From: an uncultured Phycisphaerales bacterium
GTDB taxonomy: Bacteria > Planctomycetota > Phycisphaerae > Sedimentisphaerales > Anaerobacaceae
Length of the DNA stretch: 64,000 nt
Reading direction: 5' to 3'
NCBI GenBank assembly: GCA_963718665.1
Contig: OY970359.1
Span: forward strand, 2,304,001 to 2,368,000
Shown here: positions 30,553 through 47,860 of the stretch, piece by piece
Layout of the letters: each line of letters begins with the position of its first letter
Position numbering within the stretch: position 1 is the first letter of the stretch
Program-made: the position numbers and the translations under genes
Notes under the pieces: model-generated
Seen by the model: the letters and a program-made list of their open reading frames with translations, nothing else
Told to the model about the DNA's origin: nothing
Databases searched by the model: none

Positions 30553-30571
30553 TCGCAGGAGTCGTGAGTTA

Positions 30572-31467
30572 ATGAAATCAATGGCTGCCATTTCACCAAC
30601 CGATGCTTCTGCGGCGAAAGCCGAAAAGCTAAAGGCATTGTTCGAAGGGCTGTATAAAAAATACAACCGGAAAGAGTTAATCAAGCCCGACCCGCTGCAA
30701 TTTATTTACCGATACAGCGATCCCGCGGATATGGAAATCGTCGGCCTTCTGTCTGCCTGCCTCGCTTATGGCAGGGTTGAGCAGATTCAGAATGATTTGA
30801 ATGATTTGCTTGGCAGAATGGGCAACAGCCCTTATGAATTTATGCTCAATTTCACGAATAAAGACCGGGCGTTGCTTGAGGATTTCAAGCACCGTTTCAA
30901 TACCGGCAACGACATATCCGACTTGCTTACGCTGCTAAAAGACGTGCTTGCAGAACACGGCAGTATCGAGAAGTATTTTATGCTTGGGCTTGACCCCGCC
31001 CACGAAAATACTATTTTCGCCCTGATGCGTTTCTGCGATTCGCTTTTGGATAAGTATCGTATGACACATCAGGGGCGTCGGTCGAAAGGGCTTGCGTTTC
31101 TTCTCGCGGGGCCCGGCCTGGGCGGGGCGGCCAAACGGCTCAATCTGTTTCTTCGCTGGATGGTTCGCAGCGACGATGTTGATGCGGGCCTTTGGCGCTC
31201 GGTAGATAAATCGAAGCTGATTGTCCCTGTCGATGTTCATATCGCCCGGCTTTGCAGAATTCTTGGCTTTCACAGTCATAAAAACGTTTCGTTGAAAACC
31301 GCCATTGAAATAACGCGCAACTTTGCCCTGATTTCGACGGATGACCCTGTGAAATATGATTTTGCTCTTTCGCGCATCGGCATACTCGAAGATTGTACGG
31401 GCAAGCGCGAGAACAGTGTAACGTCTGCGAATTGCTGCCGTGGTGCCGCAACAGGAAGGACTGGTAA
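30572..31467 (+). CDS. TIGR02757/DUF2400-family HhH-GPD-like protein; frameshift near 31410
   Basis: DPLQF, LAYGRV, KRLNLFLRWMVR, PVDVH, DPVKYDFAL. Alternative frame ends CNVCELLPWCRNRKDW* with TAA overlapping the next ATG. Confidence 0.8.
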
Positions 31468-33200
31468 TGATAAAGATTAGACCTGAAGACCTCGAAAAAT
31501 ACAGTTCAGCCGTAACGCTTTCGGATATGGAAGTGTTCGTGTTCCCTGAATTGTTCTATGCCCTTATTCTCGCCAATATAATGAGCCCGCTTGTCTGGAA
31601 ATGGCGTGAAGAGGACTGCTTCAAAAAACTCCAAGGCAAGGACAGCTTCAAAAAATTATTACGATTGCGCCAGTTCATAATGGATGAATACGATTTCAAC
31701 CTCGATTTGGAAACATGGGGGCTTACGAGCAAAACAAAGGAGCTGGGTCGTTTTGCCAAATTCGTTTCGCCCGAAGACGTAGCCAAAAGCAACGGTCTTT
31801 TCGGCTACGAGGGTGACAAATACTATTTCGATGTGGATATACGAAAGCACTTCGGCCTGGATAAATACGACACTGATGTTATTCCTTATTGGAAGACCGA
31901 AACCGTCGAGGCGATGGAGGCATTTGTTCACAAGCCAAACTACTCCCAAAAAGCCGGTGAGTGCGTCTCGCTTTCCGCGCTTTATGCCGCCGCGGCGTTT
32001 ATCGTCTGCGGCATACCGCTTGAGAATATATACGCGATACTAACGCCGCTTCATTCGCAGAATTTTATCGATATCCGCGACGGCGTCCTGACCAACAACC
32101 GGCGCCTTGTTACAAAGGCGATGTGGTTCAACGGCACCGAAATATCAGGCAAGGCCCAGCGTGCGCTTCGCAATGAAAACGTAACAATTGTTGCCCATTC
32201 TTCCGGCTATGCACATTGTTTCTATAAGGAAGCCACGATAAAGCCCGATGTTTACGGGTATTTCGTAAAGCAGCTTAGCTCATATTTATCCAGTGAGCTT
32301 TCGCTGGTTGTTTTCGCCAACTATCTCAGGAGTAATTCGTCTTACCAGAAATATTTCCAGCTTTGCCGGGATTGCCACGGCCATCCGCAATTTTTGAAGG
32401 CCGAAATATTGTTCAGTTATGAGCACGGCAGCGATTATCGTATTGCCGATAGCACGCACGAAAAACTTCTGGCTGAGGTTGCTGATGAAGATTTTGTCCA
32501 AGCCGAGATTCCGGGCAGGGTCCGCTGCGACTTTCTTTGTGATTTTATAACCAATAAGAAAATCGACGTTCGAACCGCCGAGGGCAGGGCGGCAATAACC
32601 GGATTCCTACAGCCGGTTATGCCCGATGTTAAGAAATTTGTCGATGAGCTTGCCGACTTTGTTCATTGTGAGCCGAAACTGCCGTCGCCCGAAAAAAACT
32701 ATCTTCCCGTCCCAGCCATTGAAATCGGTGTTGACTGGACACGCGACAAAATCATCGATTACCTGCAAAATCTTCGTGGCCAAAGCACCACTGCCGACCT
32801 TGCCTTTTATGCTTATCGTGATATGGAAACCTGCGACTGGACGCCTTTCCTTAAGGCCGTTGTTGAACGAAACCCTGTTTCTTTGGCAATGGCCCAGTCA
32901 ATGTCACCCGATACTGTCTATGGGCTTCTGCAAAAAATGGACGGTGTTTCGATTTATGACAGCAAGCGTCTTGCCCAGCCCGATGAGGTCGCAAATTACC
33001 GCACCGGCGACGGCCTCGAAAAGGCATTGCTTCTGGCTAACGTCATTCGCCAAAAATTCCCAGATGAAAATATCGATATTGCCGTTGCCGGCAATAGTGT
33101 GGTTCTGAAAGGAGCAGGCGAATACCGCTTCGATTCATCGAAGGGGCTCAAAAAACAGGTTCGTATTTCGTCTGCCGGCGAGATTATCGTGTCTGGTTGA
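31467..33200 (+). CDS. Conserved hypothetical protein, possible transglutaminase-like fold
   Basis: Long ORF with GECVSLS...PLHSQNFID and a degenerate second copy GDGLEKALLLAN. Confidence 0.6.
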   Translation: MIKIRPEDLEKYSSAVTLSDMEVFVFPELFYALILANIMSPLVWKWREEDCFKKLQGKDSFKKLLRLRQFIMDEYDFNLDLETWGLTSKTKELGRFAKFVSPEDVAKSNGLFGYEGDKYYFDVDIRKHFGLDKYDTDVIPYWKTETVEAMEAFVHKPNYSQKAGECVSLSALYAAAAFIVCGIPLENIYAILTPLHSQNFIDIRDGVLTNNRRLVTKAMWFNGTEISGKAQRALRNENVTIVAHSSGYAHCFYKEATIKPDVYGYFVKQLSSYLSSELSLVVFANYLRSNSSYQKYFQLCRDCHGHPQFLKAEILFSYEHGSDYRIADSTHEKLLAEVADEDFVQAEIPGRVRCDFLCDFITNKKIDVRTAEGRAAITGFLQPVMPDVKKFVDELADFVHCEPKLPSPEKNYLPVPAIEIGVDWTRDKIIDYLQNLRGQSTTADLAFYAYRDMETCDWTPFLKAVVERNPVSLAMAQSMSPDTVYGLLQKMDGVSIYDSKRLAQPDEVANYRTGDGLEKALLLANVIRQKFPDENIDIAVAGNSVVLKGAGEYRFDSSKGLKKQVRISSAGEIIVSG

Positions 33201-33253
33201 GAACCGGCGCGGTTATTTAATTAAAAAAATTATAAAAAAACGAACTTTTTGTG

Positions 33254-33290
33254 TTGACACTGGTATTAAATAGGACTATATTAGTCCTAT
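33254..33290 (+). promoter_or_regulatory. Sigma70 promoter with a palindromic operator (candidate Rrf2 site)
   Basis: TTGACA-N17-TATATT; ATAGGACTA-tat-TAGTCCTAT at 33270-33290. Confidence 0.75.
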
Positions 33291-33312
33291 AGTTGTTAAT
33301 CTTGAGGAAACC

Positions 33313-33753
33313 ATGGATATTATCAGGCGAAATACGGATTACGCGTTAAGGGCTGCTGTGGAGCTGGCAGGCAGGTTCGGCGGCGAGCCGGTTTCCACAA
33401 AGGAGCTTGCGGATAACCAGCGAATACCATATCAGCTTGCCTGCAAGCTTTTGCAGCGTCTTCATAAAGCCGGGATTGTAAAAAGCGAAATGGGGCCGTC
33501 GGGCGGGTTCATACTTTGCAAAAATCCGTCAAGGATAACCGTTCGCCGGCTGGTAGAAATCATTCAGGGACCTGTCCGGCTAAATAATTGTAAGCTTTGC
33601 CGGCTCTCTCGCTGCTGCACTATAAACCCGGAATTAGCCCGCCTGCAGGGCAAAATCAATGATTTCCTTGACGGCCTTACGTTGAAACAGTTGGCGGATA
33701 CAAACGGCGGTAAAAAGCCGACGAAAAACAAACGCGGCAGGAGCAAAAAATGA
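33313..33753 (+). CDS. Rrf2-family regulator
   Basis: TDYALRA, GIV.S..G..GGF.L, Cys cluster C..C....CC. Confidence 0.9.
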   Translation: MDIIRRNTDYALRAAVELAGRFGGEPVSTKELADNQRIPYQLACKLLQRLHKAGIVKSEMGPSGGFILCKNPSRITVRRLVEIIQGPVRLNNCKLCRLSRCCTINPELARLQGKINDFLDGLTLKQLADTNGGKKPTKNKRGRSKK

Positions 33754-34100
33754 ACGAAAAGAAACGCAATTCGGCTGTTTTGGAAACCTGCCTGGCAAAA
33801 CCAGCTATTTTGGCGCAACTAATTAATTACGCCGACGACTCGGTAGTAAGTAAAACCATAATCGATAAGCCCGTCGGAACAATTACCCTGTTTGCCTTTG
33901 ACGAGGGGCAGGGATTGAGTGAGCATACCGCGCCGTATGATGCGGTTGTGCAGGTGCTCGATGGCAAGGCGTTATTGACCATAGGCGGTAAACAGATAAA
34001 TGTTTCCGCTGGCGAGCTTATTATTATGCCCGCTAATATTCCTCATGCGGTCGCCGCCGAGGAAAAATTCAAGATGCTTCTCATAATGATTCGGGCATGA
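33750..34100 (+). CDS. Cupin-domain protein
   Basis: FAFDEGQGLSEHTAPYDA, MPANIPH. Confidence 0.88.
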   Translation: MNEKKRNSAVLETCLAKPAILAQLINYADDSVVSKTIIDKPVGTITLFAFDEGQGLSEHTAPYDAVVQVLDGKALLTIGGKQINVSAGELIIMPANIPHAVAAEEKFKMLLIMIRA

Positions 34101-34152
34101 TGGGGCAATAAACAGAAAAAATAAACCTAAGCGAGATTTAAGGAGATATTTT

Positions 34153-35811
34153 ATGGGTATGTTTTGTTATCAGTGTGAACAGACGGCAAAAGGCGCCGGA
34201 TGCACCGTTTTAGGGGTTTGCGGCAAAGAGCCGACCACGGCTGCTCTGCAGGACCTTTTGATTTACGCTCTCAAGGACCTTTCTCGCTATGCCAATCGCG
34301 CAAGACAATTGGGCAGCGTTGATAAAGCCGTGAACGTTTTCACAGTCAAAGCGATGTTCAGCACGCTGACAAACGTCGATTTTGACCCCGCCCGGTTTCA
34401 GGTGTTTTTGAAAGAGGCGGCCTCGATAAAAGAAAGGGCCAAGTTGCTTTACGAAGCCGCCTGCAAACACTCCGGCAAAAAAGCGGAACAGTTGCCCTGC
34501 GAAACCCGGTGGTGGACTAATCTCGACGATTTGGATGCATTTGTTGAAACCGGCACCCTTGTCGGCGTACAAGATAAAATCAACGAGCTTGGCCCCGATG
34601 TCGCCGGCTTGCAGGAATTGATTGTTTATGGACTCAAAGGGCTTGCCGCGTATGCCGACCATGCCCAGATTCTCGGAAAAGAAGATGACACGGTTTATGC
34701 GTTTATTCACAAAACACTCGACCGGCTTACTCAGAAGCCGACTGATATTGGCGAACTCCTTCAAACCGCTCTCGCGGTAGGGGAAGTCAATCTCAAGGCG
34801 ATGGAATTGCTCGACGCGGGCAATACAGGCGCTTATGGCCATCCGGAGCCAACACAGGTTCGCATTACCCCTGTAAAAGGCAAGTGCATTGTCGTTTCAG
34901 GTCACGACCTCAAAGACCTCGAAGAGCTGCTCAAACAAACCCATGGCAAAGGCATAAATGTTTACACGCACGGCGAGATGCTGCCCTGCAACGCTTATCT
35001 GGGTCTGAAAAAATATAAGCACCTCGTCGGCAATTTCGGCGGCGCATGGCAGGACCAGCGAAATGAATTCGACGCCTTCCCCGGCGCAATCCTGATGACT
35101 ACCAATTGTTTGCAAAGACCAAAAGACAGTTATAAAGCGAGAATCTTTACCTCCGGTGTTGTCGGCTGGGCAGACGTAACTCATATCTCAAACGGAGATT
35201 TTACCCCGGTCATCAAGGCCGCTCTGGCCGCACCGGGATTTACAGAGGATGCTCCTGCGAAATCCATAACAATCGGCTTTGCCCGAAATACCGTTATGAG
35301 TGTTGCCGGCAAAGTCATCGACGCAGTAAAAGCGGGCAAAATCAGACACTTTTTCCTCATCGGCGGCTGCGACGGCGCAAAACCGGGAAGAAACTACTTC
35401 ACTGAATTTGCCCAAAAAGTCCCCAATGACTGCGTCATCCTCACGCTGGCCTGCGGCAAATATCGGTTCAATAAACTCGATTTCGGCGCAATCGACGGCA
35501 TACCTCGCCTGCTCGATTGCGGCCAGTGCAACGACGCCTACTCCGCGATTCAGATAGCCATCGCCCTGGCAGGGGCCTTCAAATGCGGCGTAAACGACCT
35601 GCCATTGTCGTTTGTCTTGTCCTGGTATGAGCAGAAGGCGGTTGTAATTCTTCTGACGCTGCTGCACCTGGGCATAAAGAATATTAAGCTTGGCCCGTCT
35701 CTGCCCGCGTTCGTCAGCCCGGCCGCCCTTAATGTCCTGGTTGAAAAGTTCAATATCGCTCCGGTTGGTTCTGTGGACGATGATTTGACGACGATACTGG
35801 CAGTCAAATAA
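34153..35811 (+). CDS. hcp: Hybrid cluster protein (hydroxylamine reductase)
   Basis: MFCYQCEQT....C...GVCGK, HGEMLP, GGCDG, GQCNDAY, SWYEQKA. Confidence 0.97.
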   Translation: MGMFCYQCEQTAKGAGCTVLGVCGKEPTTAALQDLLIYALKDLSRYANRARQLGSVDKAVNVFTVKAMFSTLTNVDFDPARFQVFLKEAASIKERAKLLYEAACKHSGKKAEQLPCETRWWTNLDDLDAFVETGTLVGVQDKINELGPDVAGLQELIVYGLKGLAAYADHAQILGKEDDTVYAFIHKTLDRLTQKPTDIGELLQTALAVGEVNLKAMELLDAGNTGAYGHPEPTQVRITPVKGKCIVVSGHDLKDLEELLKQTHGKGINVYTHGEMLPCNAYLGLKKYKHLVGNFGGAWQDQRNEFDAFPGAILMTTNCLQRPKDSYKARIFTSGVVGWADVTHISNGDFTPVIKAALAAPGFTEDAPAKSITIGFARNTVMSVAGKVIDAVKAGKIRHFFLIGGCDGAKPGRNYFTEFAQKVPNDCVILTLACGKYRFNKLDFGAIDGIPRLLDCGQCNDAYSAIQIAIALAGAFKCGVNDLPLSFVLSWYEQKAVVILLTLLHLGIKNIKLGPSLPAFVSPAALNVLVEKFNIAPVGSVDDDLTTILAVK

Positions 35812-35821
35812 AGGAGGCACT

Positions 35822-36550
35822 ATGGCCTTGCGGAATATAATTGTTATCGACGAAGAAAAGTGCAACGGATGCGGGCTTTGTGCCAAGGCCTGTGCGGAAG
35901 GCGCAATAAAGATAATCAACGGCAAAGCAAAATTGGTCAGTGAGACCTATTGCGATGGCCTTGGCGCCTGCATCGGGCACTGTCCGCAAAACGCCATCAA
36001 GGTTATACAGCGGGAAGCCAAACCCTTTGATGAGGAAGCGACAAAAGAGCATCTCAGCCAAATAAAACAACAGCAGCCGGTGCCGTTTATGTGTCCCGGT
36101 ATGGTGGCCGCGCAATTGCGAAACACCCCCAAAAAATCCGATTCGACAGCAGGTGATGTCTCGTCGCAACTGACACATTGGCCTGTTCAGCTTAAACTTG
36201 TCTCCGCACACGCACCATATTTTGCGGATGCACGCCTGTTGCTCGTCGCGGACTGTGTTCCTTTTACGATGGGGGATTTCCACAGCAGATTTCTCAGGGG
36301 CCACAGCATTGTCGTTGGTTGTCCCAAACTCGATGACGCCCGTTTTTACATCGAAAAGCTCGCTGATATTTTGCAGGCCAACAAACTCAAGTCGCTGGGC
36401 GTAGTACATATGGAAGTGCCTTGTTGCCATGGTCTTACTCGAATCGCACAAGAAGCGTTGGCAAAGGCCGGAGTTGAAATGTCTTTTGAAGATGTTACGA
36501 TAGGCCTTAATGGTAGTATAAGCAAGGTCGAACAAATATCGGTTAATTGA
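35822..36550 (+). CDS. 4Fe-4S ferredoxin-domain protein (hcp-associated)
   Basis: CNGCGLC...C, CDGLGACIGHCP, WPVQL, GCPKLD, MEVPCC. Confidence 0.88.
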   Translation: MALRNIIVIDEEKCNGCGLCAKACAEGAIKIINGKAKLVSETYCDGLGACIGHCPQNAIKVIQREAKPFDEEATKEHLSQIKQQQPVPFMCPGMVAAQLRNTPKKSDSTAGDVSSQLTHWPVQLKLVSAHAPYFADARLLLVADCVPFTMGDFHSRFLRGHSIVVGCPKLDDARFYIEKLADILQANKLKSLGVVHMEVPCCHGLTRIAQEALAKAGVEMSFEDVTIGLNGSISKVEQISVN

Positions 36551-36573
36551 CTGGCCTTAGCCGGAGTTGATAT

Positions 36574-37587
36574 ATGACAGATTTTGTTAAATCGATAGCG
36601 ATGGGTTTCTGGAATACAGTTCTTGAGATGTCGCCATATTTGTTGTTTGGTTTTTTTATGGCGGGATTGCTCAGTGTTCTTGTATCGAAGCAGCTTGTTG
36701 AAAAACATCTCGGCGGCAGGGGGCTTTGGCCGGTGGTCAAGGCGTCTCTTTTGGGTGTGCCTCTGCCTTTGTGCTCGTGCAGCGTCATTCCCGTAACAAT
36801 GTCGCTTCGCAAACATGGCGCAAGCAGGGGGGCGGCTGTTTCATTTTTGCTCTCGACCCCGCAGACAGGCGTTGACAGCATTTTTGTTACGTATGCCTTG
36901 CTTGGCCCGGTCTTCGCTATATTCAGACCAATAGCGGCGTTTGTTACCGGCATAGTCGGCGGCGTGATGGTCAATCTTTTCGGAGATTCTCTCGAAAACG
37001 GCTCACAACAAAATCAGAGTTGCGAGGACGAATGTTGTTCCTCTGGGCACAAAACTAACCCTGTTACGCGAATATTCAAATATGGCTTTATCACGCTTCC
37101 CCGCGATATCGGCAGGGCGATGCTGCTTGGCTTAGTTGTTGCTGCCTTTATTTCAGCCCTTGTACCTGATGGTTTTTTTGCGGACAAGCTCGGAACCGGC
37201 ATTTTCCCGATGCTCGTAATGATGCTTTTTGGAATACCGATGTATGTTTGCGCAACCGCTTCGGTCCCGATAGCGGCCGCACTAATGATGAAGGGCTTGA
37301 GTCCGGGGGCTGCTTTGGTTTTTCTTATGACGGGTCCCGCTACCAACGCCGCGTCTTTTGTTACCATCTGGAAAATTATGGGCAGGGCTACGGCAATTAC
37401 TTACATCGCGGCTGTTGCCGGATGCGCATTGCTAAGCGGCATAGTTCTCGATTATATTATCGGCGGTATTATATTCGCTCATACTGCTCATCATGGCTGG
37501 ATGATGCCGCGGAATATTGAATATATTTCAGCAGTTGTGCTTTTTATTGTGCTGATGTTTGCTATAATCCATAAACCCAAAGAATAA
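36574..37587 (+). CDS. Predicted metal permease (ArsP/SO_0444-like)
   Basis: PLPLCSCSVIP and PMYVCATASVP motifs; multiple TM segments; Cys-rich loop. Confidence 0.8.
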   Translation: MTDFVKSIAMGFWNTVLEMSPYLLFGFFMAGLLSVLVSKQLVEKHLGGRGLWPVVKASLLGVPLPLCSCSVIPVTMSLRKHGASRGAAVSFLLSTPQTGVDSIFVTYALLGPVFAIFRPIAAFVTGIVGGVMVNLFGDSLENGSQQNQSCEDECCSSGHKTNPVTRIFKYGFITLPRDIGRAMLLGLVVAAFISALVPDGFFADKLGTGIFPMLVMMLFGIPMYVCATASVPIAAALMMKGLSPGAALVFLMTGPATNAASFVTIWKIMGRATAITYIAAVAGCALLSGIVLDYIIGGIIFAHTAHHGWMMPRNIEYISAVVLFIVLMFAIIHKPKE

Positions 37588-37625
37588 AGGATTAACGCAC
37601 GAGATTTTTTACGGAGATAAAAACA

Positions 37626-37811
37626 ATGGCAAAGACAAGTATGCCGCACGCCGGCCACAACAAACACCTTTGTTATTTGAACAATCTTGGCTATCAAATA
37701 AGCAATCCAAAGGAATACAAGGCCCTTGTAAAGAACGCCAAATTTATATGCAAAATATGTGGCAGGGTTGCCGTCAGCGATAAAAATCTGTGCAAACCCA
37801 TAGTTCTCTGA
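37626..37811 (+). CDS. Small Cys/His-rich putative metal-binding protein
   Basis: H..H..HLC...C..CGR......LC.P; GGAG SD. Confidence 0.65.
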   Translation: MAKTSMPHAGHNKHLCYLNNLGYQISNPKEYKALVKNAKFICKICGRVAVSDKNLCKPIVL

Positions 37812-38027
37812 CAGTTTCCTGTAAATCGGCGTCAGGGTAATTGGGTTTAATTGCAGCATTGGCGTTTCTGTGACAGTTTCTGTCAGTCATCGCGCCAAAA
37901 TACCAGCCCTTTTAGGTAGTATTACGCCCCCAAAAGAGGGTTTTCCTTATCACATTCTACGGCTATTGCGCCGATATTTTCCACAAGGCCTTTTCTTAGG
38001 CCTGTTTGTTGGGGGTTTCATTTAAGG

Positions 38028-38489
38028 ATGCGCGATCTAAAACCAATTCTTCTTTTGGAAGATGACAGCATTGATGCAATGACCGTTAAGAGGGCGTTGA
38101 AAGACCTTGATGTCAAAAATCCTCTTGTCCATGTGTTCAATGGCGAACAGGCGCTGGAGTATTTGCAGAATAGCGCCAACGCCGAGCCCTGTGTGATTCT
38201 TCTTGACCTGAATATGCCCAAGATGAATGGCATTGAATTCCTTAAGATTGCAAAATCAGACCCAAGATTGAAATGTATCCCGGTTGTTGTTCTTACCACT
38301 TCCAGGGCCGACAAGGATAAACTCGAATGTTTTGATAACGGTGTTGCCGGCTATATAGTTAAACCGGTCGATTACAAGGGATTTCTCGATGCAATGAAGA
38401 TACTCAACCTTTACTGGACACTCAGCGAATCATCTTGCAACCTGGTTGAAGGGCAGGGTGTTGAACCCCCAAAAACTGGCTGTTTCTGA
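38028..38489 (+). CDS. Single-domain response regulator (Rcp1-like)
   Basis: LLEDD, LLDLNMPKMNG, LTTS, YIVKP, YWT. Confidence 0.9.
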   Translation: MRDLKPILLLEDDSIDAMTVKRALKDLDVKNPLVHVFNGEQALEYLQNSANAEPCVILLDLNMPKMNGIEFLKIAKSDPRLKCIPVVVLTTSRADKDKLECFDNGVAGYIVKPVDYKGFLDAMKILNLYWTLSESSCNLVEGQGVEPPKTGCF

Positions 38490-38654
38490 CCAGCAAAATT
38501 GCCGAGTCCTATAATTATTTGGAGCATTTAAACTGTTAATATGACATTATCTATTTTCCAAAAGAGCGGTTTTTATCATCAAATCAGCCGTATTTTATGC
38601 CGATATTAAACCGGGTTTTATGCGCCACCAGTAAATTATGCAAAGGGGGCAACG

Positions 38655-39128
38655 ATGAGAAATCTCAGACCGATACTGTTTGTCGAAGACGATAACGTAG
38701 ATGCCATGACAGTTAAGCGAGCTTTCGGTGAGCTTGAAATTGTTAATGAGCTTGTCAGGGCAGTCAATGGTGAAGCGGCATTAAACTACCTGAGAGAGCA
38801 TCTCAACGAGAGGCCCTGTATCATTTTGCTCGATTTGAATATGCCTAAAATGAACGGCATAGAATTCCTCAGGGTCATTAAAGCTGATGACGAACTGCGA
38901 CAAATACCCGTAATTGTCCTGACAACATCAAAAGATGACCGCGATAAAATTAAAAGTTTCAAATCATGTGTTGCCGGCTACATAGTAAAACCGGTGGACT
39001 ACAGGGTATTCGTCGAGGCGATAAAAATTTTCGATTCATACTGGACACTAAGTGAACTGCCCGACAGCGTTCCTGAAGATACCGCTGTTGAGCTTCAAAA
39101 AACCGACTGCACCGGAACCGGCAGTTAA
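38655..39128 (+). CDS. Single-domain response regulator, tandem paralog
   Basis: Same motifs; obvious high similarity to 38028..38489. Confidence 0.9.
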   Translation: MRNLRPILFVEDDNVDAMTVKRAFGELEIVNELVRAVNGEAALNYLREHLNERPCIILLDLNMPKMNGIEFLRVIKADDELRQIPVIVLTTSKDDRDKIKSFKSCVAGYIVKPVDYRVFVEAIKIFDSYWTLSELPDSVPEDTAVELQKTDCTGTGS

Positions 39129-39605
39129 AAAACAAATATATGGATACCGTCGCTCATCTCGCCGCCGGTCAATTCTTATGGTATTGATTTCCCGCCGATA
39201 ACTCACAAAAGAAACTCACTATATCTAACCTGTCCTACTCAAAAATTCATCCGGCTGTAAAAGTTAACGATTTTCGGATTCGGAGAGGGAAAAATGCTCA
39301 TTGGCAAGTTGATATTGACTGATTTGGAAAGGGCTTTCTCTGGCCGGAACGTGTTTTTTTTGCTTAATCTTCATTCTCGTACTATAAAAAATTCATACGA
39401 TGCACGAAGCGGCGCATCCTACATCAAGAGAGGGTGTAAGTTAGTTGCAAAACTAACAGGCGGTATTGCCCATTCCGATACGCTAAATCTCTCCCATCTA
39501 TGCTAAAAAACATAGTCATTTCACCTGTATTGTCTACGTTTTTGAGTTGACTTGATGAAAAGGGACGGGCCTGATGTGTGGAGGCTATTTAGAAAAGGTT
39601 CAATT

Positions 39606-40250
39606 ATGACCGCCATCTGGAAGGTAACGGAAGCAGATATTCTAAGCAGAGGGGAGGTGGAGGAAATTTGGTCGTAGCTTTGTCTAAGGTCAACCCGCTC
39701 GCGGAATGCCCGCCAGAGCCGGGTCATCTTCTGCCTGGCCGCCTTTTGCGGCCTGCGAGTATCGGAGATATGCGGCCTGCGCCTCTGCGACGTCAAATTG
39801 ACCATACGCCGTCCGGTGCTGGAGATAAGACCGCAGATTGCAAAACAGCATCGGCGACGTAGTGTGCCTCTATGGCGACTGCCTACGGCTTTGATATGCT
39901 TTTTGGATTGGAAAGCCCGGCGTCGGGAACAAGGCGCTGGCCCGCAGGATTACTTGGTTTGTGCCCAGAGCCGCTCATCACTTGGCAAACCATTAGACCG
40001 ACGCAATGCCAGGGCCCGGTTTATAGCAGCCTGTGGAATACTGGGCAAGGAACGGCAGGAGATGCTGACCATCCACACCGGCAGGCATAGCTGCGTTTCA
40101 CATCTGCTGGCCGCGGGCTGGCCGCTTCCGGTAGTACGAGATATGCTGGGCCACGCCAATTTGTTTACGACAAGCATCTACTCCCACATCGTTGTCGATG
40201 ACCTGCCTCCGCCGGACCCGTTTGCCTTTGCCAGCGAGCATGTGGAGTAA
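39606..40250 (+). pseudogene. Catalytic-domain-only tyrosine recombinase with an in-frame TAG
   Basis: MTAIWKVTEADILSRGEVEEIWS*(39675-39677)LCL...GLRVSE..K..HTGRH..LGH..Y, all in one frame. Confidence 0.8.
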
Positions 40251-40599
40251 GGGCGGGGCTTGTGACTTGAAAGCGGGTTAAAGTACGGCGGTGGAGCGTT
40301 GGGGGTACAGGGTAAAGCTGCCAAACTTGCTGCTACAGCGGTTTTTCCGGCGCGGAATCGAAAAAGTCGGGCAAAGGGGTATGAGAAGGGATCGGAGGCC
40401 GTTCGGCCATTCTACGGGCGCAAAATGCCTTTGGGGCCGACTATGCAACATTCCACAAGGTGGTTTAGCTGCGTTTTTTTCTCAAGCTCGATAAAATCGG
40501 GACACCGGGGCCAGGCAGGGCAAAGTTTTGAGGTAGTGAGAAGGTGGTTTCCTTATACGGATAGGCGAGGATTGGCCTGTATGGTCACATGGAACAGCC

Positions 40600-40628
40600 T
40601 TGCATTTTATGGCCTCTGCTGGTAGAAT
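40600..40628 (+). promoter_or_regulatory. Sigma70 promoter with extended -10
   Basis: TTGCAT-N17-TAGAAT with TG upstream of the -10; then SD GAAAGGGA and ATG at 40664. Confidence 0.65.
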
Positions 40629-40663
40629 GTGGCAGTAATTGTCCTAAAGAGAAAGGGAATTTT

Positions 40664-40762
40664 ATGAATAGCCTCGCACCCGAATTACCGCCAACACAAC
40701 GAGCATACACACTGCGCCTGCACGGCGCAGAAAAAGCAAGGGGAGGAAGCCGTGAATTATAA
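40664..40762 (+). pseudogene. 32-aa ORF resembling the N-terminus of Cas12b (type V-B) fused to an unrelated 3' end
   Basis: MNSLAPELPPTQRAYTLRLHGAEKARGGSREL*. PP.TQRAYTLRL.GA matches my recollection of the Chloracidobacterium-type Cas12b N-terminus; not searched. Confidence 0.55.
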
Positions 40763-41033
40763 CCTGCTCGATGAAAAGTGGATTCCCGTTCTGTGGACTG
40801 ACGGCAAGTTCAATCATGTCGGCATCAAGGAGGCGCTTACACAAGCGGGACGGATTCAGGAGGTGCGAGACAGTTCCCCCCTTGTGACGTTTGGAATCTA
40901 TCGTCTGCTGATTGCTGTGCTGAAGTGGTTGTATAACTGCACGTCTGCACCCGTACATTTTTTGATGCTCTCAACGGTAATCTGCTTACACAAGGGCAAG
41001 GTTTCAAGACCGGTACTAATCGTGGTGGAATAG
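40752..41033 (+). pseudogene. Truncated Cas8e/Cse1 (CasA) N-terminal fragment
   Basis: MNYNLLDEKWIPVL...VGIKEAL.QA..I.E....PL....YRLLIAVL is the typical Cse1 start; similarity is lost after about 62 aa; GGAGG SD. Confidence 0.7.
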
Positions 41034-41090
41034 ACGTAGAATATGATGAGCCGAACGTTATCAATCTCTACTATTTTGGGAGTGATTGCA

Positions 41091-42590
41091 ATGCGATATA
41101 GAATAATTCTGCTAATTCTCCTGTTTCTGGCGACCAACTGTTGTTTTGCCGCAACTATTGTAGATGAAGCGGGTTTACGGGCGGCTGCGGCTACAGCAGG
41201 AAATAATACTATCAAGGCTAATACGACTTACGCACTAACTGATATCTGTCTTTTTAAGGGCAGTGTAACAGATGGTAATATGTCTTTCACCGTCGATACA
41301 TCGGCGGGTGATGGAAACGTTGAGATAACGAATGACGGGACTCCCAGGTCGGTGCAGGTTTGTGCGCACGCCCATAATGTGCCGATAATAATAACTTTTA
41401 CAGGCACGGCGGCAAGCCCCATTGTTTTTAATAGTAATACTGGTGTTCCTCTTCAGGTAAGCGAAGTCTATGGGGATTGGAACGACACTATGATAACGGC
41501 AACCTTTAATTACTGTTATTTTAAAGGACAACTTAGTGCCGGCGATGGTTTTAACGTGGGCGGGGCGGTTGTAAACCCTGTTGCTTTGGTTTTTAATAAC
41601 TGCAAGGCGTTCAACAATACCGGAGATGGTTTTTCGTTTTTAGCGGATAACGGGACTCCTATCAAAACGATGGTGCTGAATAATTGTGCTTCTTATTGGA
41701 ACAACAACATTAATAATGGCGGTGGTGGCACAAGCGGGTTGGGTGCGGGTGATGGCGTTACCGCCCATTCACCAAATCAAACAATAATTATGAATAACGG
41801 GAATTTTTATCAAAATGGCAAAAGCGGTATAGCCATTGTCGGCGGGGGGACGTTAATCGTTCACGATGCCAACATTTATGATAACGGCTATGCAGAACTT
41901 GTAAATAATAATGGCTATCAGGTTTATATGGAGGGAACATCCGCTCACCAGGGCGTTTGTCAGATTTATCATTCAAATATCTATAATGAAGTTGCTATTG
42001 CCCAAGCCCAACCGCTTGGCTTCGCTAATATGAATGTAACTCTGCACAATAATATAATCGATGCTGCAAACTGTAATGTCAACGACCCCGCTATAGCCAT
42101 CGATGGTAATTGTTCAGTGAATTTCAGGGGCAATATCTTCAAAAATAACAGGACATTGTATAATTATTTCATAAACGGCTCGCTGCTTTCCTCTGGCGAG
42201 ATTGCCAACAATGATTTTATCAATAACGTTCGGGATGTCAATATGGCAACACCTGCCCTGCAACTTTACAATAATATCTTCTTTAAAATGGCGGGCGATG
42301 CCAATGCTATTAACTGTTTTACAACAAATGCATACACCAATAGTTGCGGTGGCTATAATTGTTTTTATGGTTTGGCGACTGCCACTAATTATTTCAAAGG
42401 TGATAACGGCCTGAAAACGACCGATATTATAGCAAATCCATTATTCAAAGACAAAGATGCAAATGACTTCAGTTTATGGGGTTCTTCATACTGTATAAAT
42501 AGGGGTATGTCTACTCAGAGTGGTGGCTCATCAACCATCGGTGCTTGGCAACCAAAAAAGCAAAATAGCTCTGTAATACTGGCAAAATAA
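41091..42590 (+). CDS. Secreted Asn-rich right-handed beta-helix protein
   Basis: Signal peptide; repeated NxxDG/NNII turns; C-terminal ANPLF.D....DF.L...S.CIN.G...IGAW motif; AT-rich. Confidence 0.75.
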   Translation: MRYRIILLILLFLATNCCFAATIVDEAGLRAAAATAGNNTIKANTTYALTDICLFKGSVTDGNMSFTVDTSAGDGNVEITNDGTPRSVQVCAHAHNVPIIITFTGTAASPIVFNSNTGVPLQVSEVYGDWNDTMITATFNYCYFKGQLSAGDGFNVGGAVVNPVALVFNNCKAFNNTGDGFSFLADNGTPIKTMVLNNCASYWNNNINNGGGGTSGLGAGDGVTAHSPNQTIIMNNGNFYQNGKSGIAIVGGGTLIVHDANIYDNGYAELVNNNGYQVYMEGTSAHQGVCQIYHSNIYNEVAIAQAQPLGFANMNVTLHNNIIDAANCNVNDPAIAIDGNCSVNFRGNIFKNNRTLYNYFINGSLLSSGEIANNDFINNVRDVNMATPALQLYNNIFFKMAGDANAINCFTTNAYTNSCGGYNCFYGLATATNYFKGDNGLKTTDIIANPLFKDKDANDFSLWGSSYCINRGMSTQSGGSSTIGAWQPKKQNSSVILAK

Positions 42591-42690
42591 GGCGTTCTAC
42601 TTTAGATGCACATTAAATAAACGAGCAGAACAAACTTTTACAGGAATTAAATTCGAGAAAGTGAAATATAAAACGCTCATTGATTTTAAT

Positions 42691-43735
42691 TTGCTCTGTA
42701 GAAAAGATTGAAGCATAAGGTTTAGTCATGGCGATAAGTGTTAATAATAACAATAACTTAGGTTTCAGCCATAAACCGCGTTGGAAAGGATTCCACGATG
42801 GCCAAACACGGAGTTATGACCAAATCACCTGTTATGCTGGCAAAGCAGGCACTTCAGACAGCCACAACGGCACTCTCGCCATATTCAGCCAATCGCTCAC
42901 GCCACGATTTTACACAGGCACAGTTGTTCGCCATTTTGACTCTGCGACAGTTTTTTCAAACCGACTATCGTGGGATTGTACAGTTGCTGGCGGACTTCAC
43001 GGACTTGAGAGCTGCGATTGGGTTGTCAAAAATTCCTCACTACACTACCCTTCAAAAAGCACAGCAACGTCTGCTAAAAAAAGGGCTTGGGACAAGCTGT
43101 TAGCCGCCATTTTCAGTATTGCCAGCCGCGATGGCTTAATCGAGGAACGCCCCGAGGCATCCATTGATTCGACGGGGCTGGAAAGCCGGTTTGTCAGCCG
43201 ACATTTTCTAATGCGTCAAGGCAAACATACCCAGCAATATCGCCGATGGACAAAACTTACGGTTGTCTGCCACAATGCCAGCCATCTGATTGCTGCCGGC
43301 TTGGTCAGCACTGGTCCCAGCAATGATTGTTCCTACCTTATGCCGGCAGTTTCCCAGGCGGTAACTAATCTGCCTATAGACCGGCTTTTGGGTGATGCAG
43401 GATATGACGCAGAAGCCAACCATAAATTCTGTCGTCAGTATCTCGGCATCCGCTCGACGATTATCGCTATCAACAACCGACGAGGTAAAAAAGGCGAGCT
43501 TACAGGCCATTACCGAAATCAAATGAAGAATAACTTCCCGAAACGTAAGTTTGGTCAGCGATGGCAAGTTGAGAGTGTTATGTCTCGCATGAAACGTCGT
43601 CTTGGCTACGCCCTTCGTAGCCGAACGAATGAATCTCGCAGTACCGAGTGCGTCATGAGAGTTCTGACCTACAACCTGATGCTTCTCTATTTACTTTTCA
43701 TAAAGAACTTTTAATTAAAGGTTTCTACAAAGCAA
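42691..43735 (+). mobile_element. IS5-family insertion sequence
   Basis: Terminal inverted repeats TTGCTCTGTAGAAA / TTTCTACAAAGCAA enclosing a DDE transposase. Confidence 0.85.
42798..43714 (+). CDS. IS5 transposase expressed via a -1 frameshift
   Basis: OrfA (IPHYTTL) and OrfB (IDSTG, GDAGYD, RWQVES...KR) overlap at an A7G run, 43076-43083. Confidence 0.82.
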
Positions 43736-43996
43736 TGTGATATTTGCAAAGAAGTTGTTAAAGGTGAATGCAAAACCTGCCACTTCACGAATGAACACCC
43801 CAACGAAGCCTCTCCGTAAGGCTGTGAAGATAACCGTAAAAACATCTGTTATTTTCACGGCTTTTCACACCTAACAAAAATTATTCCTAGTGTAAGTTTC
43901 TATTTTACATAGACTTCCTGCTCCTGCCATCAAGTGTGAATTTCGCATTCCCATACTCTACAAAGACCATCGAATGTTTTTTTACAGGATCTGAAT

Positions 43997-44212
43997 ATGA
44001 GGACATTATTGAGAGTGCCGGATTTAATTGAGGCTATCGAGCCGCTTGTTGGGACTAGGATTGTTGCCGATGATGTTTTCAGGCTCATCGGTAGTGGCGA
44101 CATAAAGCCTTTGGGTGTTGTCCAGAGGACGCCGGTATTCGACCTCGACCAAATTGCGGGCATAGCAGAAGTGATTAGACAGGCGGCAAAGGGGGACAAC
44201 GATGACCGTTGA
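43997..44212 (+). CDS. Small hypothetical protein of the element (possible DNA-binding)
   Basis: ATG with AGGA SD; overlaps the next gene start; co-oriented with the element operon. Confidence 0.45.
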   Translation: MRTLLRVPDLIEAIEPLVGTRIVADDVFRLIGSGDIKPLGVVQRTPVFDLDQIAGIAEVIRQAAKGDNDDR

Positions 44213-44501
44213 CCGGCAGACCATAGCCCCGGCACCGCTTGTTTCTGACAGTATCCCGCCGCTTTTGGTCGATAGCCGCAGGGCCTCGCGCCTTTGTGGA
44301 ATTTCCCGTTCGTCCTGGTATTCGCTATTAAGTGCAGGCCGCATAGGGCCGCCAACGATTAAGCTGAATGGCCGGTGCTTATATAGTGTTTCGGATTTGA
44401 CGGAATGGGTCGCGTCGCGAAATCCTGAAACCGGCCTTCTACCGACACGTGAACAATGGATTGCGAGGCAAAGGCCGGAGGGAGCAAAAAGATGCCTTTA
44501 A
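44202..44501 (+). CDS. AlpA/excisionase-like HTH protein
   Basis: LLV....SRLCGISRSSWY.L...G..GP..IKL.GR.LY...DL.EW. Confidence 0.75.
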   Translation: MTVDRQTIAPAPLVSDSIPPLLVDSRRASRLCGISRSSWYSLLSAGRIGPPTIKLNGRCLYSVSDLTEWVASRNPETGLLPTREQWIARQRPEGAKRCL

Positions 44502-44920
44502 TGGAATATCAAACATTCAATTTCCGGCCCGCTTCTATTGAGATTATCAAAAAGGCAAATTCGATAATCACCGCATACCAGGCCAACGGCTATGATTTGA
44601 CGCTCCGGCAGCTTTACTACCGGTTTGTTGCACGTGCCCTTAGACGAATCGCCCTGAATATGGAGCAAGTCCAACAATACAAACCACCGCCAAATTTTGC
44701 CAAACTGACTGACACTCGATGCAGTGATTATATTGCCGGGTATGGCCGTGAGTCGTGGGAGTTAGATGCACTTGACCCGAAAGTAATCTGGGAACTAATC
44801 GGTTGCGAGGTTAACAGACTTACGGACCGAACCAATCGGCAACAATTGATTGACCTACAGGAATCAGACAAACAGAAGCTTGCCTACCTTTCAGACCACT
44901 GGGAGGAAATAGGGATATGA
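44492..44920 (+). pseudogene. Topo VI-A/Toprim-like phage protein with an apparent in-frame internal deletion
   Basis: LTLRQLYY.FVAR is joined directly to RIALNMEQV..Y.PPPN.AK.TD.R...Y...YG.ESWELDAL; the central EKD and DxD Toprim motifs are absent. Confidence 0.6.
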
Positions 44921-46140
44921 GCCAACCAAACGAAAATACGCTCTTAAAAGCCGCTTTGGAATATCACCAGCGCGGGTGGTGTATCTTTCCCGTGGTACAC
45001 GGCACGAAAAAGAAACCCTGTATCAAGTGGAAAAAGTACCAGCAGCAGCGCCCTGATGAAAACACCATCCGGGGGTGGTTTAATGGCGGGAAAAAGAACA
45101 TAGCGGTTGTGTTCGGTAAAGTATCAGGTGGCCTTGCCTGCCGTGATTTTGACACGATGCCAGAGTATGAACTTTGGGCAGGAAACCACCCAGACCTTGC
45201 AAAGATATTGCCGACAGTACAGACAGCAAGGGGTAGGCACGTTTACTTTGAGCAGAAGCAAGTTGAAGGTAGTAAAAAAGTGTCAGCCGGTGAGCTTAAA
45301 TGCAGCAAATGTTATTGTTTGCTTCCCCCATCATTACACCCGTCAGGTTCAATTTATCAATGGCTCATACCCCCGAATGATGAACTGCCTGAATTATCAC
45401 TAAAAGATTTCGATATAGCAGACTTTACAGAAGAGACAGAAGAAGTAGAGGAGACAGAAGAACCTGATGACAGTGAAGATATTGAAGCAATAAAGATTGC
45501 TTCTGTCTCCTCTGTTTCCTCAGGCTCTTCTGTTTCCTCTGTCTCCTCTGTAAACGATAGTGTTATTGTTTTTGAAAATCTTGATGTTAAAGTAAAAAAT
45601 TATGTCAACACCGCTATAAAATGCACAAGACCCAATAAAGAAGGGTATCGAAACTTTTTGATTTTTCAGTTTTGCCGGTGGTTAAAAGGCAACGCTGAAT
45701 TTGAAAAATGCCAGGCCGGACAGTTAAAACCGCTGGTCAGACTTTGGCACGAAAAGGCATTGCCGACAATTGGGACAAAACCGTTTGACGAGACCTGGGC
45801 TGATTTCTGCTATGGGTGGACACGGGTGAAATATCCTAAAGGCAGCGGTGAGCTAAAGATTGCGGTAGAAAAGGCATTAAATGCGCAAAAAAATCTTGCC
45901 GCTGAAGAACTTTACGAAATATCGGAAGTAAAGCTTTTGGTACGGGTTTGCTATGAACTTCAGGCATTGCGCAAAACCGAACCGTTCTGGTTGTCTTGGA
46001 ATGACGCTGCTTTGATATTAGGCGTAACGAAACCGACAGTGGGCAAATGGCTGAGTATGCTTGAAGCTGACGGAGTTATCAAAAAGGTTGCCGAATATAC
46101 TGCTAAACGAGCGGTGCGATATAAATTTATTGCGAAATAA
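44917..46140 (+). CDS. Bifunctional primase-polymerase (Prim-Pol) replication protein with C-terminal wHTH
   Basis: ALEY..RGW.IFPV...KKP, NIAV..G..SGGL...DFD, T.RGRHVYF, LLPPS.HPSG..Y.W; C-terminal AALILGVTKPTV.KWL..L...GVI. Confidence 0.85.
   Translation: MSQPNENTLLKAALEYHQRGWCIFPVVHGTKKKPCIKWKKYQQQRPDENTIRGWFNGGKKNIAVVFGKVSGGLACRDFDTMPEYELWAGNHPDLAKILPTVQTARGRHVYFEQKQVEGSKKVSAGELKCSKCYCLLPPSLHPSGSIYQWLIPPNDELPELSLKDFDIADFTEETEEVEETEEPDDSEDIEAIKIASVSSVSSGSSVSSVSSVNDSVIVFENLDVKVKNYVNTAIKCTRPNKEGYRNFLIFQFCRWLKGNAEFEKCQAGQLKPLVRLWHEKALPTIGTKPFDETWADFCYGWTRVKYPKGSGELKIAVEKALNAQKNLAAEELYEISEVKLLVRVCYELQALRKTEPFWLSWNDAALILGVTKPTVGKWLSMLEADGVIKKVAEYTAKRAVRYKFIAK
45424..45554. repeat. Inverted array of 9-bp iteron-like repeats inside the rep gene
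   Basis: ACAGA(A/G)GA(A/G) units on + followed by the same units on -, around the GAAGCAAT-aaag-ATTGCTTC hairpin. Confidence 0.85.
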
Positions 46141-46185
46141 AAAATATGTGCTTGACAATATAGCAAGTATGTGTATGATTGAGGT

Positions 46186-46392
46186 GTGATTTTGGAACGT
46201 ATAGCAGAAGCCATTGAAAAGTCGGGTAAGACCAGATACCAGATTGCACAAGAAACGGGTATCGACCAGGCGGTGCTTTGCAGGGTAGTTTCTGGTGGCA
46301 GTTGCGGCACAAAAACCGCCGATCTTCTTTGCAAGTATTTGGGGCTGGAGCTTACGCCGAAGAAGCTAAAACGAAAGGCAGGCGCAAAATGA
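46186..46392 (+). CDS. Cro/XRE-type HTH regulator
   Basis: SGKTRYQIAQETGIDQAVL.R...G....KTADLL..YLGLEL; upstream TTGACA-N16-TATGAT; ATGA overlap with the integrase. Confidence 0.8.
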   Translation: MILERIAEAIEKSGKTRYQIAQETGIDQAVLCRVVSGGSCGTKTADLLCKYLGLELTPKKLKRKAGAK

Positions 46393-47860
46393 GAGTTTTC
46401 AGAACATCATACAGAGACAAAGGCGGGGAATTCCACGAAGTCAAAAACTACTACGTCGAGCTGCGGGACCATTTAGGAACCGTTCGGCGTTTTCCGGCCT
46501 TTGTTGATAAAATGGCGTCCGCGGCGCTTGGCCGACAGATAGAACGGCTTGTATCTTGGAAGGTTGCAGGTGAACAGCCGACACCGGAATTGACACGCTG
46601 GCTTGAGGGAACGCCACAGAGTTTGAGAAAACGGTTTGCAAAGATAGGACTTCTCGATGCTGAACGTGCAACCGGTGGACAGCCCGTTGCCAAAGTCGTC
46701 AAGATAGGAAATAAAGAGGTTTTGAAAGATTGTTTGCTTGCCGACTTTGAGCGTTCGTTGCTGGCCGGTGGAGATACGGTTGCACAGGTCGAACTAACCG
46801 TTGGCAGGTGCAGGCGGATTGTCGAAAAATGCAGGTTTGCTGCGTGGACGGATATATCGGCAGACGCCGTGAGCCGCTATATTGAGAATTTACAAGGCAA
46901 AGACGGTTTGAGCAAGAGGACGGCAAACCATTATCTGCGGTCAATAAAGCACTTCTGCCGGTGGATGGTTAAGCAGCGAAGGGCAAGCGAGTCACCCTTG
47001 GCACAACCTTGACTGCGTGTCCGTCGAAACAGGCGATATACGACACGGACGACGGGCACTTGAGCCGGACGAGATTCGCCGATTGTTAGAGGCAACGGCA
47101 ACACAGCCGATGCGTTATGGTCTGACAGGGCGGGAGAGGATTTTGTTGTATCGGCTGGCAGTTGAAACGGGTTTGCGACGAAACGAGTTACGTTCTTTGA
47201 AGGTGTTGTCGTTCGACTTTGAGGGCTGCACAGTCACGGTTGAAGCGCAGCATACAAAAAATGGCAAGCTGGCCGTGTTGCCTTTGAGGGTGAATACGGC
47301 GGCGGAGCTAAGGCAATTTGTAGCTGGTAAGCCGCCGAATACGCAAGTTTTCAAGGTCCCGGGCGCGACTGCAAAGATGTTCAGGATTGATTTGAAGGCT
47401 GCTGGTATCGACTACGTTGATGAATCAGGGCGGTATACGGACTTTCCACTCACTGCGACACACCACAGGGACGCTATTGGCTGCTGCCGGTGTTCACCCG
47501 AAAACGGCGCAGACCCTTATGCGACATAGCGATATAAATCTGACAATGAGCCGATACACGCACACGCTGACCGGTCAAGAATCCAGAGCGGTTGAAAGTT
47601 TGCCGGACCTGTCCACGCCGAGCCGACAATCACAGCGGGCGGTTGCTACGGGGACAGATGGGAAAAACTTGGTGCGTTTCTTGGCGCTTGATACCGGAAA
47701 ACATCTGACTACATCGGACACGGTTGGACAGGAAAACCGCATTGTCGATAGTAAAAACGCATTATCTACTGCGCCCGGCCAGATTCGAACTGACGACCTC
47801 CGGTTTAGGAAACCGGCGCTCTATCCTACTGAGCTACGGGCGCGACCGCCCCTATTATAG
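46389..47860 (+). pseudogene. Tyrosine integrase with two +1 frameshifts (about 47005 and 47444); 3' end runs antisense through the tRNA
   Basis: Three consecutive ORFs; TGLRRNE, HTKNG, (DF)HSLRH, MRH and RYTH catalytic set is complete when rejoined. Confidence 0.85.
47770..47843 (-). tRNA. tRNA-Arg(CCT), CCA not encoded
   Basis: GCGCCCGTAGCTCAGTAGGATAGAGCGCCGGTTTCCTAAACCGGAGGTCGTCAGTTCGAATCTGGCCGGGCGCA; cloverleaf, anticodon loop TTCCTAA, GTTCGAAT T-loop. Confidence 0.95.

Follow-up and report, generated by a model that had tools for sequence, protein, structure and literature searches.

A cas12b 5′ remnant abutting a truncated I-E2 cas8e gene in a decayed island at tRNA-Arg

The locus and its setting

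The window analysed here, a stretch of 64,000 nucleotides, is C1:2304001-2368000 of genome G000, from an uncultured Phycisphaerales bacterium, and its genes of interest lie on the forward strand. An SD-like site, AAAGGGA (40652-40658), precedes a 32-codon ORF (40664-40762) whose TAA overlaps the first four codons of a second ORF, starting with GTG at 40752; this arrangement, described in an earlier note on the DNA, is confirmed. The first 22 codons of the short ORF (40664..40731) are a 5′ stub of cas12b, from the clade of large, ~1500-amino-acid Cas12b1 proteins that includes ChCas12b, and they run on into the native leader of a cse1 (cas8e) gene with its SD (40730..40751). The second ORF begins as cas8e/cse1, with codons 1-35 (40752..40856) of the type of the I-E2 main group and codons 36-59 (40857..40928) of the P0002/P0004-type Cas8e lineage, where homology stops. 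Beyond it, out of frame with cse1, lies the 3′ end of an unrelated gene (40952..41101, forward strand), which has a homologous stretch in G016 and no PHROG match. Today the site can yield only two junk peptides, of 32 and 93 amino acids.

Upstream of the stub is a promoter-like site, TTGCAT-17-TAGAAT (40600-40628), with a weak -35 and a TGn extended -10, which may be presumed to be the cas12b promoter. The earlier note spoke of a clean promoter; both elements are present, but they agree with the consensus at only 8/12 positions and the site fell below threshold in a promoter scan.

These pieces sit in a composite island of 8.5 kb (39231..47769) at the 3′ end of a tRNA-Arg(CCT) gene, the integration site, which lies on the reverse strand (47770..47843; tRNA scan and Rfam). 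The limits of the island follow from an empty site in G006 and G019, of the same genus, in which 39230 is joined to tRNA-Arg with ~13 nt between. Together with the insertion at a tRNA 3′ end and an integrase adjoining the tRNA, the empty site bears out the proposal that the locus is part of a tRNA-integrated mobile element. No attL or flanking att repeat, in the form of a duplicate of the tRNA end, was found in 30000-47700; a sister element in G007 does have an att direct repeat. All further components lie on the forward strand: a repeated element end of ~145 nt (39231..39375), with more copies elsewhere in G000 and in relatives; a small Xer-like tyrosine recombinase (39606..40250) broken by one TAG at codon 24; the cas genes; a probably secreted right-handed beta-helix protein as cargo (41043..42590; an atlas lead, with no good Pfam match); a DDE insertion sequence (42691..43746) with six further near-identical copies in the genome; and the backbone of the tRNA-integrated element (43997..47769), comprising an AlpA-like HTH gene, a topoisomerase-like ORF, Prim-Pol, a further HTH gene and an integrase in three frames. 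With its broken integrases, IS and lost attL, the island is decayed as well as composite.

The Xer-like integrase elements make up a family: they have a conserved end of 145 nt, occur several times in a genome and carry variable cargo. Members are found at 39231-40250 of the window, at G000:C1:2116013-2116715 and 817848-817991, and at G007:C4:11343-12142. The cargo in G007, behind an intact Xer-like copy, is defence-like (DNA methylase, Vsr-like as judged by eye, UvrD-like and SIR2-like), and the sister copies in G000 and the genus have no CRISPR cargo. The IS transposase (42728-43714) occupies two overlapping frames, an arrangement like that of a programmed frameshift, and its six other copies are at least 99% identical. 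Inside the Prim-Pol gene, 45427-45551 is a long imperfect inverted repeat of 9-nt units, coding for an acidic and then a Ser/Val-rich stretch.

Two breaks bound the pieces, one at ~40730, where stub and cse1 leader overlap by only 2 nt, and the other between 40929 and ~41005. The earlier note had placed deletions near 40730 and 40935. The second agrees with the right-hand break, cse1 homology ending at 40928; at the first there is indeed a break, but the partner in the fusion is the leader of cse1 itself rather than the tail of an upstream gene. The joints are spanned, with 0 differences, by contigs in runs X1 (40060-42475), X2 (40354-40857 and 40863-41986) and X3 (40756-41041), all of one study, X1 being possibly the source of the assembly, and the joints are no assembly error. 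Loose ends in X2 and X3 at 40742 and 40797 come from other organisms in the same samples with a related cse1, whose leader has its last 10 nt in common with the window and an apparent short hairpin over the SD.

Cas12b origin of the stub

Searched alone, the stub peptide has no profile match in Pfam, NCBIfam or PADLOC and finds nothing at E<=0.001 among 1.84 billion proteins; another stand-alone search returned two candidates and no match, and a plasmid search one chance match. A search of the class with the profile PF22204, the WED-II domain, gave no match anywhere, the controls likewise being without a match, and it carries no weight as evidence. In the PDB, the sole match at E<=10 is to the N-terminus of ChCas12b (9KLN residues 6-19, E 1.6, nine identical residues; PMC12204704), the relative of the stub with a solved structure, and PMC10691335 describes the clade of large Cas12b1 proteins.

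A pattern back-translated from the window peptide retrieved at least 120 metagenomic loci, a set that is selected because the pattern was drawn from the window itself; among the matches listed, 116/120 have the motif exactly, and of the 115 loci long enough for testing 112 run on into Cas12b. In metagenomes the motif is diagnostic for Cas12b. Two full-length proteins bearing it score 991 and 1039 bits on NF033949, a model that begins after the motif, ~30 residues into the protein, and for this reason the NCBIfam Cas12b profile cannot detect cas12b stubs. Independent support comes from Cas12b genes found with NF033949 that also bear the motif, exactly in G853 and with one change in G032. At the DNA level the window resembles cas12b loci, such as L051, up to 40731 and there the likeness stops.

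Were the likeness to Cas12b a matter of chance, or the junction an assembly chimera, the lack of a significant stand-alone match (PDB E 1.6) and the origin of the search motif in the window would be readily understood. This reading is essentially refuted, and we give it next to no credence: one exact motif is observed in G000 where chance predicts 4.5e-6, the reversed pattern was positive in 0/401 genomes, the motif stands 10 codons after an SD-preceded Met (the mode in real cas12b genes is 9), the genes in G853 and G032 were found without recourse to the motif, and the joints are bridged in three runs. The claim that the peptide is a Cas12b start is supported by the motif loci, the 9KLN match and the DNA likeness up to 40731; no Cas12b profile matches the peptide itself.

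The resemblance to type V-B systems with the large ~1500-aa Cas12b1 (ChCas12b, PDB 9KLN-9KLQ; PMC12204704, PMC10691335) thus extends to the motif, to its spacing from the start codon and to the DNA up to 40731. Unlike such systems, the window keeps 22 codons only. A full-length effector with RuvC is lacking in G000 by NF033949, and tblastn of 42 long Cas12b proteins, cut at the motif start, found nothing there at E<=0.05. An ORF scan of the island revealed no cas4-cas1 or cas2, a simple repeat finder gave no CRISPR-like array in G000 (only two 3-copy matches), and no tracrRNA was matched by the general Rfam models, under which tRNA-Arg alone exceeded threshold; 40250-40660 has no DNA likeness to cas12b loci. 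Beyond the two fragments, G000 yielded neither cas12b nor I-E genes, nor any CRISPR-like array.

The cas8e fragment and its relatives

The ORF at 40752 is a truncated Cse1, as had been proposed, with matches to PF09481 (E 4.3e-15), TIGR02547 (E 3.6e-10) and PADLOC Cas8e, and its likeness to Cse1 ends at codon 59. Residues 1-34 or so follow the main I-E2 type (31/34 identical to P0003, 29/34 to L001 and 21/34 to P0002), and the following stretch does not (23/24 to P0002, 8/24 to P0003). It is the single PF09481 match in G000, and tblastn of the I-E genes of L001-L009 against this genome found the fragment only, and no cas11, cas7, cas5-HNH or cas6.

In the stub frame the leader reads EKARGGSREL before the stop, and the earlier note regarded these as the last codons of the gene natively upstream of cse1. 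Intact leaders read alike in that frame, ending in GASREL in L001 and GGSHEL in L002, each followed by a stop and both at loci without cas12b, and the DNA match to the L002 leader begins at 40730 and that to L001 at 40738; EKARGGSREL is therefore cse1 leader DNA. Moreover, the stop after EL is forced by the N-Y-N codons of Cse1, so that the overlap is no evidence of selected coupling. The peptide was also considered as a Cas3 or Cas12b C-terminus and rejected, as it matches no Cas12b end examined and neither of two Cas3 ends, and recurs in cse1 leaders. In L001:9950-10003 and L002:9945-10010 an SD, an ATG and an ORF of 5-10 codons stand just ahead of cse1, and these are possibly stubs of other displaced genes.

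Over the extent of their contigs, nine genuine genomic relatives (of 19 loci) have the order cse1-(cse2)-cas7-cas5-cas6-cas1-cas2-array, and judging from ORF lists no ORF of cas3 size lies immediately upstream of cse1. Wherever cas5 was seen in a Cas3-less cse1 locus (15/15) it is long, with an HNH-like tail, which Pfam HNH matches in 3/5 scanned Cas5 proteins, and for the L002 protein there is a PDB match to 8YB6 (E 2e-118). The Cascade of these relatives is the type I-E variant I-E2, Cas5-HNH (PMC10910872, PMC11794572, PMC12669027), and the presence of the tail in all 15 loci implies an HNH-Cascade that needs no second nuclease (PMC10910872). The leader and codons 1-35 of the window are closest to cas8e of this Cas3-less, Cas5-HNH type (PMC10910872, PMC11794572, PMC12669027; PDB 8YB6 series) and belong with I-E2 Cas8e. 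The window differs from I-E2 in holding 59 codons only, in taking codons 36-59 from another Cas8e lineage and in having a cas12b stub in front; the window locus shows no sign of the cas3 remnants of which PMC10910872 speaks.

The leader that the window has in common with intact I-E2 loci is no longer than 14-22 nt, and upstream of it their DNA is unrelated, as would be expected of a mobile cassette. Several Cas3-less Cas5-HNH loci sit on integrative elements, and in G372 an intact I-E2 operon lies within a related tRNA-type element (integrase 40-47% identical), where it points away from the element backbone; the window cse1 points toward it.

Cas12b stubs before other genes

Elsewhere, 7/135 of the motif loci listed (109 distinct) have a cas12b 5′ stub of 23-52 codons followed by something else, a count from which 17/23 flagged rows were dropped as cas12b continues (L083 being ambiguous) and to which L146 was added by hand; the window stub, at 22 codons, falls below this range. 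Four of the seven loci are pieces of 517-632 nt, too short to display operons. L135 and L152, pieces of only ~520 nt, have stubs overlapping the start of a type I-MYXAN cas6 (TIGR02807, E 6.5e-12 and 3.5e-10). By hand count their stubs share 72/109 nt and their cas6 parts 103/107 nt, which from this comparison would be one cassette behind two different cas12b starts; the L135 cas6 frame closes after 48 codons. At L135:177-471 and L152:180-525 the different stubs meet the near-identical cas6 at the same codon, a second class 1 case. At L289 and L162 the stub is followed by a second, divergent cas12b, at L286:3150-9374 a 23-codon stub stands before a 2074-aa Avs1b-like STAND gene, at L146 a small ORF without recognised identity follows, and at L305 the stub is alone, with nothing recognisable after it. 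In the text reached by our literature searches there was no description of cas12b stubs ahead of class 1 genes.

These cases raise the idea, on which we would place even odds, that large cas12b genes repeatedly offer a landing slot at their 5′ end, where the effector gives way to class 1 cassettes, other cas12b genes and Avs-like genes, which take over its promoter. At L289:11763-16868, on the reverse strand, the stub stands directly before a divergent 1700-aa Cas12b, with a repeat array several kb further on. L221:8900-9280 (G793:C35) holds a truncated N-terminal piece, ~120 aa, of another type V effector clade, with a weak Cas12b-profile match.

Search for an intact Cas12b-Cascade locus

In the earlier note the locus was derived from an ancestor that co-transcribed Cas12b with Cascade subunits. 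Spelled out, this would mean that a full-length cas12b took the position of cas3 in a Cascade operon and that the stub is what an internal deletion spared; an HNH-Cascade operon would once have begun with Cas12b, a genuine hybrid of class 2 and class 1, and the L135 and L152 joins would be similar scars. Promoter, stub and cse1 are indeed co-directional and abutting, I-E2 has no cas3 and hence a free slot, the stub-cas6 joins can be read in the same way, and a putative Cas12m-Cas3 hybrid of the two classes has been reported (PMC10910872).

No such ancestor appeared in any set examined, all of them samples in which many genomes are fragmented, searched with queries that target I-E and would miss non-I-E Cascades. 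I-E Cascade genes occur in 0/124 metagenomic and viral motif loci among the matches listed (732 kb; I-E queries gave two cas1 matches only) and in 0/21 genomic ones (cas1 matches only), and cas12b occurs in 0/18 cse1 loci (23 regions, 18 distinct loci) and in 0/9 genomes of L001-L009. Complete cas12b genes number 41 among the 124 listed loci, 34 with at least 500 nt and 24 with at least 2 kb downstream, and no I-E gene follows in those 34 or in 16 complete genomic cases; many genes of both sets have cas4-cas1 after them. Long Cse1 fusions of 955-2725 aa were absent from 7999 scored candidates, a weak test. The viral collection held no locus for P0002, full Cas12b or the P0002-type motif and no useful cas6 locus, its yield being two I-E2 loci and four motif matches, three of them non-Cas12b; plasmids gave only distant Cse1 and one distant cas12b.

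In the class, the motif pattern occurs in 22/400 other genomes (one a chance match) and Cse1 in 0/22 of the pattern-bearing ones. Cas12b is above cut-off in 4/401 genomes of a phylum sample and in 4/301 of an order sample, the latter having Cse1 in 10/301 (G000 included) and no genome with both. Among five Cas12b genomes tested, Cse1 is also present in G853, on a separate contig and preceded by 9 kb of other genes. That G853 locus, L229:3771-8240 on the reverse strand, is a divergent I-E locus with a 655-aa Cas8-Cas11 fusion, in a genome that also has a V-B locus; its Cas5 is long, with an HNH-like tail without the usual zinc cysteines.

The closest Cse1 homologues thus have no cas12b neighbour, but their loci are Cas5-HNH (I-E2) and not the ordinary I-E operons that the earlier note contrasted with a hybrid. 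In addition, the supposed end of an upstream gene is the cse1 leader, I-E2 has its own nuclease, and Cas12b needs a tracrRNA and other repeats (PMC12204704). A Cas12b-headed HNH-Cascade operon, co-transcribed and later trimmed, is accordingly very improbable, as is the reading of L135 and L152 as its counterparts. If true it would be a new architecture; nothing found supports it.

Origin of the locus

We propose, with a probability of roughly 0.55, that cas12b was replaced in situ by an I-E2 cassette behind a retained promoter and stub, and that the locus then decayed. Starting from the observed pieces, joints, island and recurrent stubs, we infer the order of events, a working intermediate and a promoter that would be cas12b's own. 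A defence slot behind the small Xer-like integrase would have held a type V-B promoter and cas12b. An I-E2 cassette, consisting of cse1 leader, cas8e, cas11, cas7, cas5-HNH and cas6 and usually cas1-cas2-array, would then have joined at cas12b codon 22-23 with a 2 nt overlap, the cas12b body being lost. The self-sufficient HNH-Cascade may have inherited the promoter, and the stub would have been left as a short ORF upstream, its end overlapping the start of cse1. Lastly, a deletion after cse1 codon 59, where the break is seen, presumably at this late stage removed the rest of the cassette.

This replacement is favoured because cas12b stubs recur before other genes, because an integrative element in G372 holds an I-E2 operon and because the Xer slot in G007 holds other defence-like cargo. 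It is weakened by the opposite orientation of the G372 operon, by the window stub being shorter than the others and by the shortness of the L135 and L152 pieces; the functional intermediate, an intact I-E2 operon preceded by a cas12b stub, was observed in 0/18 cse1 loci.

The same end state would result from deletion between tandem loci. Here a V-B and then an I-E2 locus, co-directional and never one unit, would have been fused by a deletion of at least 4.3 kb, another deletion having removed the I-E2 genes. Both systems do occur in this taxonomic order and class, and together in G853, the island is heavily decayed, and an overlap of only 2 nt at the junction suits such an event. Against this, a tandem pair is seen in 0/8 complete genomic cas12b loci with at least 8 kb downstream and in 0/18 cse1 loci (2.5-12.5 kb upstream for the 16 measured), Cse1 is absent from all 22 motif-bearing class genomes, and in G853 the two loci lie on separate contigs, host genes preceding cse1. 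It would also take luck for a break to fall within 22 nt of the cse1 start, and we consider a deletion between neighbours a possible but less likely origin.

Comparison with known systems

The locus is dead and both its parents, Cas12b and I-E2, are already known, so that its value is a readable breakpoint. The scar would be a variant of known in-place module swapping: in the in situ shuffling of CRISPR effector modules, exemplified by the exchange of cas9 in II-C (PMC12669027), one module likewise replaces another at the same site. Unlike the II-C case, the window crosses classes, from V-B to I-E2, retains the old promoter and 5′ stub, and is visible only as a scar. It suggests that the in-place exchange of CRISPR modules extends even across classes and can spare the old promoter and a cas12b stub, and such stubs can be mined with one short motif. 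In the putative Cas12m-Cas3 hybrid (PMC10910872) class 1 and class 2 genes are adjacent, as here; that hybrid, however, recurs as an intact locus, and its Cas12m is inactive (PMC10910872), whereas no intact Cas12b-Cascade locus was found. The word Cas12b is absent from the main text and eight supplementary files of PMC10910872, the locus figures in PDF form possibly lying outside the searched text.

Mosaic cas8e genes

The change of affinity within the window cse1 is abrupt. Of the informative residues, the 10 up to position 34 without exception agree with P0003 and the 15 from position 37 onward with P0002 (Fisher p 3e-7, the breakpoint having been picked after seeing the data). Comparable switches are found between intact genes: L001 against L224 gives 6/34, then 18/24, 37/61 and 82/123, and P0002 against L006 gives 27/34, then 9/24, while L191 and L195 are alike at 42-48/50 nt over -200 to +150 and at background level after +200. 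The window cse1 and several intact relatives are therefore mosaics in which the body changes at about codon 35. A quick Cse1 tree carried long-branch warnings and was left out of the reasoning on the order of events, and our literature search, within the text it reached, gave no published account of cse1 mosaicism.

Selection on the N-terminus, rather than recombination, could be advanced for the pattern, but the identity of the window cse1 to L001 at 29/30 nt favours recombination. This suggests recurrent swapping of the PAM-reading subunit among I-E2 cas8e genes, and Cas5-HNH Cascades may exchange the body of this subunit behind a common 5′ end, which would bear on the PAM diversity of an editing-capable system. 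Among the I-E2 cas8e genes at L001:10001-11608, L191:12557-13954 and L195:11456-12313 and in P0002, the leader and the first ~35 (to ~65) codons are shared and the bodies are of different lineages.
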